Shown here one piece after another: positions 32,687 through 34,772 of a stretch of 64,000 nt of DNA. This DNA comes from an uncultured Acidimicrobiaceae bacterium (lineage in GTDB: Bacteria; Actinomycetota; Acidimicrobiia; Acidimicrobiales; RAAP-2). The notes beneath the pieces are model-generated. The model worked only from the letters and a program-made list of their open reading frames with translations, was not told the origin of the DNA and searched no databases. The DNA lies in the NCBI GenBank assembly GCA_963809715.1, contig CAWEKO010000002.1, positions 189,665 to 253,664 on the forward strand, read 5' to 3'. Numbering within the stretch: the first letter of the stretch is position 1; every line of letters begins with the position of its first letter. Made by a program: the position numbers and the translations under genes.

Positions 32687-32938
32687 CTGCGACCCGCCCT
32701 TCCAGCTCCTCCGAGACTCTTCCTGAGATCTTGTGCGCTCACATGGCTCTGCGAGAGGTCCACTTCAAAGGACGCACTTCGGACCGAGCGACGAAGCATT
32801 CAATGTCCGAGGCACCTGCGCCCGGCGCTCGAATCCTCTCCAGTGTGCCGAGTCAACTCGCTCTATGAACCCGACAATTCGTCTTCGGAAACCTCGCCGT
32901 GCCCGGCCGCCGTGCAGGGGCAATCCGGTGGCCGGGTC

Positions 32939-33277
32939 TCAAGTGAGTTCTGACGCTTCTTCGACTGTCAGTTCCGCAGCTGGATCGGATTCAAGGCGCT
33001 CATCAGGAATGGGCTTCCCTGAGCGAATGGAGGAGCCGTACGTGCCGGCCTTCAGCCGCTCTTCGGCCCGAGCGATTGCAGCCAGCCGATCTTGAAGCTC
33101 AGCCCTGACAGAGCTGTCGACGCCCTCGGCGGTGAGAGGTTCGGCTGAGTCGAACATGTCGCCGGGCTGATTTGCCGCCTCGCGGTCGGCTGTGCCCGCT
33201 TCCACAACATCCGCCAACAGCTGCTCTGTGCGGGCTTGTTCTGCGCGAAGCAATTCCTTGGCCTTGGCGTACTCCAT
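32939..33277 (-). CDS. DksA/TraR-like protein lacking the Cys4 zinc finger
   Basis: Coiled-coil N-terminus, then RLKAGTYGSSIRSGKPIPDERLESDPAAELTVEEA, matching the actinobacterial Cys-less DksA-like pattern. Confidence 0.7.
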   Translation of the reverse strand: MEYAKAKELLRAEQARTEQLLADVVEAGTADREAANQPGDMFDSAEPLTAEGVDSSVRAELQDRLAAIARAEERLKAGTYGSSIRSGKPIPDERLESDPAAELTVEEASELT

Positions 33278-33470
33278 TGATTCGTGGCCCCTTTCAATTC
33301 GCTAGGGGGAATTTACTTAACCCGTTGTTACAGAACCATTCCTCGAGCGTTTCGATCATTCAGGATAAATTCCAGCCTCGGTCCAACGCTCACGCTTCTG
33401 GCCAGGGGCGACCGAACCTGATCGCCAAGACGACGCCTGCAAAACAGTCAAGCAAGCTGCATACGGTGGA

Positions 33471-34067
33471 CTATCGACGGCGCGACGAGGTGTTGAGAGC
33501 GATTGCGTCCCGAAGTAAGGCGCCCAATGCCTTTTGGTTGATTTGATCGCCTTTGTGTATGTCAATGGCACGTCTGACATTGCCGTCAAGGCTGGAGTTG
33601 AAGAGGCCGGCTGGATCCGTAAGGGAGGCTCCTTTCGCAAAGGTGAGTTTCACCACGCTCTTATAGGTCTCACCAGTGCAGATGATTCCGTCGTGCGACC
33701 AAACAGGAGTCCCTCTCCACTTCCACTCCTCGACCGCCTCGGGATCAACTTGCTTAATGAGAGAGCGGATCCGAGAGAGCGTCTCGCCTCGCCAATCTCC
33801 GAGCTCGCTGATCCTGGAATCGATCAGCTGTGACGCACTCCCGCCTTGCTGGGCGGCCGGTACCCGCTTGGCGGCCTTCTTGGCCGGTACCCGCTTGGCG
33901 GCCTTCTTGGCCGGTACCCGCTTGGCGGCCTTCTTGGCCGGTACCCGCTTGGCGGCCTTCTTGGCCGGTACCCGCTTGGCGGCCTTCTTGGCCGGTACCC
34001 GCTTGGCGGCCTTCTTGGCCGGTACCCGCTTGGCGGCCTTCTTGGCCGGTACCCGCTTGCTCGCCAT
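33471..34067 (-). CDS. DUF1801 (YdhG-like) domain protein with N-terminal (KRVPAKKAA)7 basic repeat tail
   Basis: GAAAGAGGTG RBS before ATG 34067. LGDWRGETLSRIRSLIKQVDPEAVEEWKWRGTPVW...VKLTFAKGASLTDP is the DUF1801 pattern. Confidence 0.8.
   Translation of the reverse strand: MASKRVPAKKAAKRVPAKKAAKRVPAKKAAKRVPAKKAAKRVPAKKAAKRVPAKKAAKRVPAKKAAKRVPAAQQGGSASQLIDSRISELGDWRGETLSRIRSLIKQVDPEAVEEWKWRGTPVWSHDGIICTGETYKSVVKLTFAKGASLTDPAGLFNSSLDGNVRRAIDIHKGDQINQKALGALLRDAIALNTSSRRR
33855..34059 (-). repeat. perfect 27-bp tandem repeat, 7 full copies plus a 16-nt partial copy
   Basis: GGCCGGTACCCGCTTGGCGGCCTTCTT recurs at exact 27-nt spacing from 33855. I saw no mismatch between the full copies. Confidence 0.95.
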
Positions 34068-34176
34068 CTGCACCTCTTTCTCAAGTGAGACCGTTGACAA
34101 CGACTGATTCAAGTATCTCAGCCGTGCCACTGCTTGAGCAGTAATACGGATGACCGTCGGTCGTCTGCGAAGGTCT

Positions 34177-34467
34177 CTAAGGGGCTCTCCCAGCGATGTG
34201 GGTGCAGCTTTGCTGCAGGGGTCCTCGAACTCTTTCGCCGTTCGATGACTGAGCCTCGCACTGACGTTGCAAACCTTTGGGGGCGTGCGTGTCCGAGCAC
34301 ACGGAAGAATGGGGCCGTCTACGACAGGAATAGCCAACACCGATGGCGACGACGAGGAGCCCGAGAGGTTCGTTCGCTACGACGTGAAAGCGCTTTGGCC
34401 ACCACAGGGCCACAGCCGTCGCCACGATGATGATGAAGATGACGCGGGTGGGAAATTGCCATTCCAC
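34177..34467 (-). CDS. possible small membrane protein
   Basis: VEWQFPTRVIFIIIVATAVALWWPKRFHVVANEPLGLLVVAIGVGY gives two hydrophobic helices with good GC3. The C-terminal half has poor codon usage, and no clear RBS is present. Confidence 0.3.
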   Translation of the reverse strand: MEWQFPTRVIFIIIVATAVALWWPKRFHVVANEPLGLLVVAIGVGYSCRRRPHSSVCSDTHAPKGLQRQCEAQSSNGERVRGPLQQSCTHIAGRAP

Positions 34468-34772
34468 CCGAACACGGGCGGACAGCCCGGACCCTCCAGC
34501 ATGGTGACCGTGTTCACGTGGTGAGAATCGTCACGCGAGCCTGCAGGCCAACAGGCATCGGAGGAACGAGTCAATGTTGTTGAAGACTTGTCATTCGATC
34601 CCCTTGCTCTTCCGGTCACCAGAGGGGCCGCAAGAACACGGGGGTGTGTTGGCTTCCGAGCCGTCGCCTTCACCGTCCCTAAAAGCACAAAATCGCGCCG
34701 TCCACCGACCCGATGGAGCGGCTCGGACCCGGACCACCGGGCTCGGGACGAGCGGATTCCAATGCGACGTGG

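Follow-up and report, generated by a model that had tools for sequence, protein, structure and literature searches.

A perfect 27-nt tandem array encodes a lysine-rich, predicted polycationic tail on a DUF1801 protein and varies in copy number among uncultured relatives

We analysed a 64,000-nt stretch of contig CAWEKO010000002.1 from an uncultured Acidimicrobiaceae bacterium (hereafter the window), in which the 5' end of a minus-strand gene for a 198-aa protein (P0001) consists of head-to-tail copies of one 27-nt unit. Tandem Repeats Finder (TRF) reported a period of 27 from 33855 to 34059 with 7.6 copies, 100% matches and no indels (consensus GGCCGGTACCCGCTTGGCGGCCTTCTT). Direct string comparison placed the limits of period-27 identity exactly at the same two positions and resolved the 205 bases into seven full units plus 16 nt, which bears out the preliminary description of seven mismatch-free copies and a 16-nt remnant. 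The array comprises 178 consecutive period-27 matches, a length not attainable by chance. Across the whole genome (4.56 Mb in 10 contigs, G+C about 67%, assigned to the Actinomycetota by six WhiB-family genes), it was the longest perfect array and the only perfect one that TRF found with a period of at least 9 and more than 3.3 copies. On the coding strand the unit reads AAG CGG GTA CCG GCC AAG AAG GCC GCC, translated as KRVPAKKAA; identical head-to-tail units with a length divisible by three are one mark of an in-frame variable-number tandem repeat (VNTR). The product is MAS-(KRVPAKKAA)7-KRVPAAQQGGSAS followed by a DUF1801 domain, with the TAG stop codon at 33471-33473. Translation and the Pfam match thereby bore out the earlier reading of an in-frame MAS-(KRVPAKKAA)7-KRVPAAQQ in front of that domain. 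Plus-strand open reading frames over the array (33676-34107, 33830-34144 and 33846-34088) and another minus-strand frame (33824-34084) are open merely through the periodicity of the repeat and were rejected as unsupported.

The preliminary description had named a start codon downstream of the repeat as the outcome that would remove the tail from the protein. Both the ATG at 34067 and its ribosome-binding site are kept across 12 aligned orthologous upstream regions, while the remainder of these regions has diverged with 1- and 2-nt gaps, which indicates that it is non-coding. Reading directly from the array to the invariant domain start SQLIDxRIxELGDWRG, we found no in-frame ATG, GTG or TTG; hence the tail is translated whichever start is used, and a start beyond the repeat is ruled out. 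Longer public gene calls that begin at upstream TTG or GTG codons (P0002, P0003, P0219 and P0220) are probably miscalls. Further upstream, the core CTGA(G/A)ATACT of the motif GGCTGAGATACTT is invariant in the same 12, otherwise diverged, regions. Its conservation and position suggest that it is probably an extended -10 promoter element, and a candidate transcription start site would be expected directly 3' of CTGAGATACT. A consensus promoter and terminator scan of 32800-34500 called nothing, GGCTGAGATACTT included. The motif was also considered as a regulon signal and rejected, as it occurs once in the genome.

Table 1. Features of the locus and proteins with similar tails elsewhere in the genome. 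Positions are those of the window unless a C label precedes them.
Feature	Position	Strand	Basis
Perfect tandem array, 27 nt x 7.59	33855..34059	(-)	TRF 100% matches, exact string test, codon layout
Coding sequence of 198 aa (P0001), polycationic N-terminal tail plus DUF1801/YdhG-like domain	33471..34067	(-)	Translation, Pfam, orthologues with the same start
Ribosome-binding site GAAAGAGG, 5 nt 5' of ATG 34067	34073..34080	(-)	Read from sequence; (A/G)AGAGG(T/C)G kept in 12 orthologous upstream regions
Conserved upstream motif GGCTGAGATACTT, candidate extended -10 (TGn-GATACT), 44-56 nt 5' of ATG	34111..34123	(-)	Conservation in 12 upstream regions
Region coding for predicted disordered tail and linker, residues 1-77	33837..34067	(-)	AlphaFold2 confidence and charge count
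DUF1801 (PF08818) domain, residues 93-189	33501..33791	(-)	Pfam E 2.4e-20
112-aa Cys-less DksA/TraR-like gene, 3' of the DUF1801 gene, syntenic partner	32939..33277	(-)	Weak Pfam zf-dskA_traR match
Topoisomerase I, Lys/Ala/Pro-rich tail C-terminal	C5:24361-27168		Composition scan
Ku, Lys/Ala/Pro-rich tail C-terminal	C9:344286-345665		Composition scan
DksA/TraR zinc-finger protein, tail N-terminal	C9:80854-82152		Composition scan
NYN-domain RNase, tail C-terminal	C7:176306-178111		Composition scan
Geranylgeranyl-reductase-like FAD enzyme, tail N-terminal	C5:295231-297762		Composition scan
148-aa all-repeat K/R/A/P/T/V protein (MAVAAKRRAPARKAAKKRAPAKKAV...), outside the window	G000:C7:152362-152817 (L002:1474-1920)		Composition scan

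The tail is extreme in composition. Residues 1-73 contain 30 Lys plus Arg and no Asp or Glu, giving a net charge of +30 and an isoelectric point (pI) of 12. With its seven PAKKA motifs, the segment is Lys/Ala/Pro-rich and acid-free in the manner of the PAKKA and lysine-repeat tails. The resemblance to the DNA-binding tails of HupB and H1-like proteins, which had been noted before, is thus upheld as one of PAKKA type, with binding as a prediction. In an AlphaFold2 model built on a 48-sequence alignment, residues 1-77 had a predicted local distance difference test score (pLDDT) of about 46-54 and no secondary structure assigned by DSSP, and the tail is accordingly predicted to be intrinsically disordered. 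Residues 78-197 formed the folded unit of the model, with a topology of two helices, five strands and a helix at pLDDT 85-94. The Pfam match to PF08818 covers profile positions 1-85 of 85 with 73.2 bits against a cut-off of 27.2. Foldseek returned B. subtilis YdhG (2OC6_A) and BH2032 (2KL4_A) as top matches, with probabilities of 0.98 and 0.95 and target-normalised template-modelling scores of 0.64 and 0.67. The E-values of these matches were only 0.07-0.14, because the disordered tail was part of the query. Model and structural matches together point to a YdhG-like alpha/beta fold. This domain is not acidic (net charge +3, pI 9.3). The translation contains no signal peptide or hydrophobic segment, and we therefore regard the protein as cytoplasmic.

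Membership of the histone H1 family was rejected, since neither the tail alone nor the full protein matched PF07382 (HC2) and NF038053 stayed below its cut-off. Searches of the PDB by sequence, with the single sequence and with a 48-sequence profile, yielded only spurious ankyrin-repeat matches and a weak match of the tail to histone H1.10 (E 0.27). As the tail falls below all H1 profile cut-offs, its likeness to H1 is compositional and concerns the mode of action, not homology.

Strain-to-strain variation in the length of the tract had been predicted from the identity of its units, and comparison with orthologues revealed it: at least 26 distinct relatives carry tails, and among close relatives the number of units ranges from 2 to 8. 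Within the window's cluster at 90% identity or more, we found 5 (P0220), 6 (P0221), 7 (the window) and 8 units (P0219, in which three of the eight read QRVPAKKAA). A second cluster at the same threshold, that of P0124, contains 2, 3, 4 and 5 units in proteins of 153, 162, 171 and 180 aa. Alleles within both clusters thus differ by exact 9-aa steps. The 6-unit allele lies on a 1.3-Mb contig and the 7-unit allele on a 0.54-Mb contig, and the 4-unit allele has the same assembly on four contigs, each from a different sample. The lowest count in any sequence seen is 2 units. With one exception, the variants are set apart by multiples of 27 or 9 nt and keep the frame, so that no lasting frame shift of the kind that would mark a phase-variable on/off contingency locus was present among them. 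The exception, on a 51-kb ENA contig, is P0167, which is related to the G035 gene; for some 24 residues its tail (...KRCQEGRQAGTGQEGRQAGTGQEAAKQ...) is read in the +2 frame of the unit and then returns to frame. This excursion reflects either two compensating indels or long-read consensus errors within the array.

The relative L087 shares 95.9% nucleotide identity with the window over 10.6 kb and differs at one of 357 domain bases. Its array differs in both the number and the type of units: it is built of TRVPAKKAA units (ACG...GCG) with 9-nt inserts encoding KKA or KKV, as opposed to the seven KRVPAKKAA units of the window; L151 and P0222 are further variants of the L087 type. Other lineages carry homogenised units of their own: L145 has seven homogeneous units with GTC, and L133 one GTC unit followed by five with GCA (KRAPAKKAA). 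In L119, L120 and L128 the tails are degenerate. Because the array changes rapidly amid near-identical genes while its units are homogenised within lineages, we conclude from these alignments that the tract is best described as a fast-changing in-frame VNTR undergoing concerted evolution. The earlier suggestion that unit identity betrays ongoing slippage or recombination is consistent with the divergent L087 array and with the lineage-specific units; recency alone does not account for the identity, because one 27-mer is common to lineages whose domains are separated by 0.7-1.6 synonymous substitutions per site (dS). Changes in steps of 27-nt units and 9-nt sub-units would arise by slipped-strand mispairing or unequal recombination. 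Each unit is able to form a 5-bp GC stem (CGGCC-AAGAA-GGCCG), and both three-unit DNA and the tail mRNA folded somewhat better than shuffled sequences (z -2.2 to -2.8), which lends weak support to structured slipped intermediates.

The subfamily in which the tail occurs is very large. More than 8000 database proteins were matched in a search that scores no more than 8000 candidates; a typical member has 131-138 aa with a short MKK...-type leader, and some are fused to DUF5655. Against genomes labelled Gaiellaceae, Solirubrobacterales, Bradyrhizobium, Mesorhizobium, Pseudomonas, Acidobacteriota and others, identity was 70-80%. Such conservation across Actinomycetota, Alpha-, Beta- and Deltaproteobacteria, Acidobacteriota, Nitrospirota and further groups is unusual for a domain of unknown function. 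Every genome checked had one copy of the subfamily, tailed or tail-less. A protein search of 36 species-level genomes from the window's genus recovered a matching tail in G035 alone, and the 26 or more tailed relatives came from searches centred on the tail and the N-terminus of the domain. On a domain-only tree, 26 tailed sequences fell into four all-tailed groups on an unresolved backbone. Their monophyly was not rejected by the approximately unbiased (AU) test (p-AU 0.30). Between the major tailed groups, domain dS was 0.7-1.6, with a ratio of nonsynonymous to synonymous substitutions (dN/dS) of about 0.1-0.2; as domains this diverged are still tailed, the tail has been retained over a long divergence. 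Unrelated basic tails occur in other lineages of the subfamily (P0139/P0141/P0158, P0143, P0154 and P0179), and well-supported branches of the tree force at least three gains or losses. The fusion of such a tail to DUF1801, initially described as unusual, is therefore not rare within this subfamily: 26 or more sequences of one clade share it, and different basic tails were gained elsewhere.

Several tailed relatives share a neighbourhood comprising DedA, DUF1801, the 112-aa DksA-like gene, a sigma factor, DUF6328 and DoxX. The 112-aa gene lies downstream of the tailed gene in L087, L118, L119, L120 and L133; its zf-dskA_traR match (E 0.005) is below the cut-off, and every zinc-finger cysteine is substituted (GTYGSSIRSGKPIPDERL). 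Membrane or envelope genes next to tailed genes include DedA, DoxX, GT87 and acyltransferase-3. Tail-less genes of the same genus have none of the window's neighbours in their 1.5-kb flanks, which are too short to settle positional orthology. Among 80 loci from many phyla (L007-L086), the only partners were ArsR (22 loci) and SRPBCC/AHSA1 (13 loci), both of which are absent beside tailed genes and give no indication of a function. No suf, isc or haem genes are adjacent to the window's DUF1801 gene. As a separate observation, the DUF1801 domain (33471-33830) and the downstream 112-aa protein (100% identical) are more alike in the window and L087 than the surrounding 10.6 kb (95.9%); this near-identical block may stem from a recent sweep, from recombination of a small block or from unusually strong constraint.

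Exactly the same 27-mer, AAGCGGGTACCGGCCAAGAAGGCCGCC, is the unit in the window (seven times) and in L089/G035, L118, L146-149 and L150 (four times in each), lineages whose domains differ at a proportion of synonymous sites (pS) of 0.46-0.66. The string includes GTA, the rarest Val codon of the genome (3.2%), and the chance that the peptide is encoded by precisely this string under genomic codon usage is 5e-4. With 7.3 synonymous sites per unit, an unchanged unit is expected in only some 0.1-1% of lineage pairs. Units other than that of the window are present in its closer relatives L087, L120 and L133. Recent transfer of the whole 5' region was considered as a source of the identical arrays and is unsupported, the 5' untranslated regions (5'UTRs) having diverged. 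In scans of metagenome contigs, the pattern of start plus first unit had no match, and a 20-nt core of the unit had four single matches on unrelated contigs. Three options would account for the shared 27-mer: selection on the nucleotide sequence at the 5' end of the coding region, cycles in which the array collapses and expands again from a first unit under constraint, or the passing of arrays from one lineage to another.

A composition scan of the genome's proteins placed the tail in a wider setting, recovering five identifiable carriers of similar tails (Table 1) and a 228-aa protein without a Pfam match. Most of the identifiable carriers act on nucleic acids. The scan also found a 148-aa protein that consists entirely of repeats, with counterparts of 126-182 aa in most genomes of the genus. 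It scored below the Pfam cut-off for HC2 and is probably a free-standing H1-like nucleoid protein. In sister genomes, the KRAPAKKAA units of this protein are identical to the DUF1801 tail unit at 25 of 27 nt, and it could be the source of that unit.

Taken together, we consider it probable that the array is a translated in-frame minisatellite encoding a 73-residue disordered polycation that tethers the YdhG-like domain to DNA, RNA or polyphosphate. By analogy with the PAKKA and lysine-repeat tails of HupB, TopA, Ku and the major lipid-droplet protein MLDS, the tail would be drawn to DNA, or to RNA or polyphosphate, by its charge and regardless of sequence; once bound, it would hold the attached DUF1801 domain on the nucleoid, with an affinity governed by the number of units. 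A role in stress may be indicated by the gene block, which includes a sigma factor, the DksA-like gene, DUF6328 and DoxX. Several observations weigh against this interpretation. Most members of the subfamily work without a tail, and in at least 20 of the 36 genomes sampled from the genus this is true of the only copy. The tail reaches no histone-H1-like profile cut-off (no Pfam match; NF038053 19.9 bits against 80). One of the similar tails sits on the geranylgeranyl-reductase-like flavoenzyme, so that a tail alone is no proof of a nucleic-acid role. Finally, the copy-number variants come mainly from short metagenome contigs, and assemblers can mis-size repeats. A stronger version, in which the array is a tunable in-frame 'rheostat' whose slippage-prone nucleotide sequence is itself maintained by selection or by a dedicated homogenising process, appears unlikely to us. 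It builds on the retention of one 27-mer, with its rare GTA codon and its hairpin in each unit, across species with genes saturated at synonymous sites, alongside rapid shifts in unit number within populations. If it were true, the affinity of a stress-linked DUF1801 protein for the nucleoid or another polyanion could be adjusted quickly, and a free-living soil actinobacterium would possess an in-frame counterpart of contingency loci that acts quantitatively.

Mis-assembly is the least probable of the competing explanations, and we regard it as very unlikely. It holds that the array is real, with its length of 7.59 units wrong or its perfect identity produced by consensus polishing. Perfect 27-nt repeats over 205 nt are indeed hard for short-read assemblers; the genome, however, comprises 10 contigs, which makes it probable that long reads crossed the 205 nt, and long-read errors are usually 1-nt indels that would break the frame, which is intact. 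Independent assemblies of close relatives show 5, 6, 7 and 8 units, 7 units are also present on a 1.25-Mb contig of a separate lineage, and the identical 4-unit array recurs across samples as described above. Little more can be said for the view, improbable in our judgement, that the tail is functionless low-complexity sequence expanded by slippage at a permissive N-terminus. The free variation between 2 and 8 units among close relatives, the many tail-less family members and the abundance of low-complexity tails in high-GC genomes (PMC5714199) would fit such an origin. Against it, the tail persists in a clade with synonymous-saturated domains and has at least two units in every sequence seen, all but P0167 keep both the frame and the K/R/A/P/V composition, even the degenerate L119, L120 and L128, and elsewhere in the subfamily basic tails of unrelated sequence have arisen.

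An additional function of the repeat in DNA or RNA, for example as 5' mRNA structure that tunes translation or as a periodic GGTACC or CGGCC-N5-GGCCG element bound by a factor, would place its nucleotide sequence under selection along with the peptide. It would explain the identical 27-mer in five deep lineages, rare GTA included, which at the observed pS would escape synonymous change with a probability of about 0.001-0.01 per pair; the diverged 5'UTRs make recent transfer of the whole 5' region an unlikely substitute. Folding of the tail mRNA also beats shuffled sequences (z -2.65, 0/200), and the 5-bp GC hairpin is possible in each unit. Yet units with GTC (L145) or GCA (L133) abolish GGTACC in arrays that are no less homogeneous, the single-unit hairpin falls short of significance (z -1.3), the frame survives every change and on/off switching is thus excluded, and repeated re-expansion from a conserved first unit could give the same pattern; we think such a function unlikely. 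A somewhat better case, although still a minority one, exists for another polyanion as the target, namely polyphosphate granules, ribosomes or RNA, or anionic polymers of the membrane or envelope. Polyphosphate granules have been proposed as the target of AlgP, and envelope polymers as that of the Lys-rich repeats in HBHA of mycobacteria. Polycations that act by charge make no distinction among polyanions, and the neighbouring membrane and envelope genes would suit such a target; HbhA has been reported to be both heparin-binding and nucleoid-associated (PMC10665949). The cytoplasmic character of P0001, which lacks a signal peptide or hydrophobic segment, and the predominance of proteins that act on nucleic acids among the identifiable tail carriers of the genome argue against such a target.

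If the tethering interpretation is correct, the Lys/Ala/Pro tail is a rather ordinary instance of a strategy common among actinobacteria, which attach proteins in this manner to DNA or to other polymers of negative charge. High-GC bacteria make wide use of such polycationic tails to place proteins on DNA and other polyanions, although the tails have been little studied, and a very large and strongly conserved DUF1801/YdhG-like subfamily can now be added to their carriers. For a domain of unknown function, the tail is a functional hint that it works at or near nucleic acid, and the natural alleles of 2 to 8 units provide a ready-made affinity series. Only the clean population-level copy-number series and the unexplained nucleotide conservation of the unit go beyond the ordinary. 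The locus is a clean natural illustration, from uncultured soil bacteria, of how a coding minisatellite evolves in concert and becomes polymorphic in copy number. It also carries a practical warning: such tracts can be mis-sized in assemblies, and gene callers often start too far upstream, as in the four public calls named above.

Among known systems, the array itself resembles in-frame VNTRs such as the repeat region of mycobacterial hupB, for which a 27-bp length difference exists. As in VNTRs of this type, the unit length is divisible by three, close strains differ in copy number and slipped-strand mispairing is the presumed mechanism; unlike them, the present series (2-5 and 5-8 units) and its homogenised variants are documented from metagenome assemblies alone. 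The encoded tail belongs with the Lys/Ala/Pro polycations that resemble the C-terminal tail of H1, which include chlamydial Hc2, the histone H1-like proteins of Burkholderiales and Pseudomonas AlgP with its KPAA repeats, and its likeness to these is compositional. On the side of the domain, B. subtilis YdhG/Fra (2OC6) and BH2032 (2KL4) have PF08818 and the alpha/beta fold in common with P0001; their identity to it is 14-15%, and the solved proteins, of 124 and 118 residues, do not exceed the folded domain of P0001 in length and so have no comparable tail. YdhG/Fra is reported to donate iron in the manner of frataxin (PMC10855754; PMC4934914) and to have acidic residues on its surface (PMC10855754), whereas the P0001 domain carries a net positive charge. 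Given the identity of about 14%, the non-acidic domain and the lack of Fe-S or haem genes nearby, we did not transfer the iron role, and a frataxin-like iron-chaperone function is only a lead.

Parallels to the combination of tail and folded module come from Actinomycetota. In Streptomyces TopA, lysine repeats confer DNA binding and stabilise the enzyme-DNA complex, and a survey of 22 Streptomyces proteomes counted lysine repeats in 554 proteins, with over-representation among DNA-binding proteins (PMC5714199). The tails of TopA, HupS/HupB (Hlp, MDP1), Ku, FtsK and HrdB follow the pattern K(1-2)-(A/T/P)(3-5), with repeat numbers that vary among and within genera, and are typical of high-GC genomes (PMC5714199); in this they are similar to the tail of P0001. 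They are carried by known DNA-acting proteins and are usually C-terminal and degenerate, in contrast to the nucleotide-perfect array on a DUF1801 domain. A precedent for the proposed arrangement is MLDS of Rhodococcus jostii RHA1, in which PAKKA motifs bind DNA and tether the module, together with lipid droplets, to the chromosome, with a phenotype in stress survival (PMC5504291). MLDS joins a non-DNA-binding module to a short PAKKA tail, the logic of cargo plus tether that is proposed for P0001. Its tail is C-terminal with four PAKKA motifs and no perfect tandem array, whereas that of P0001 is N-terminal, with seven nucleotide-identical units and predicted binding.

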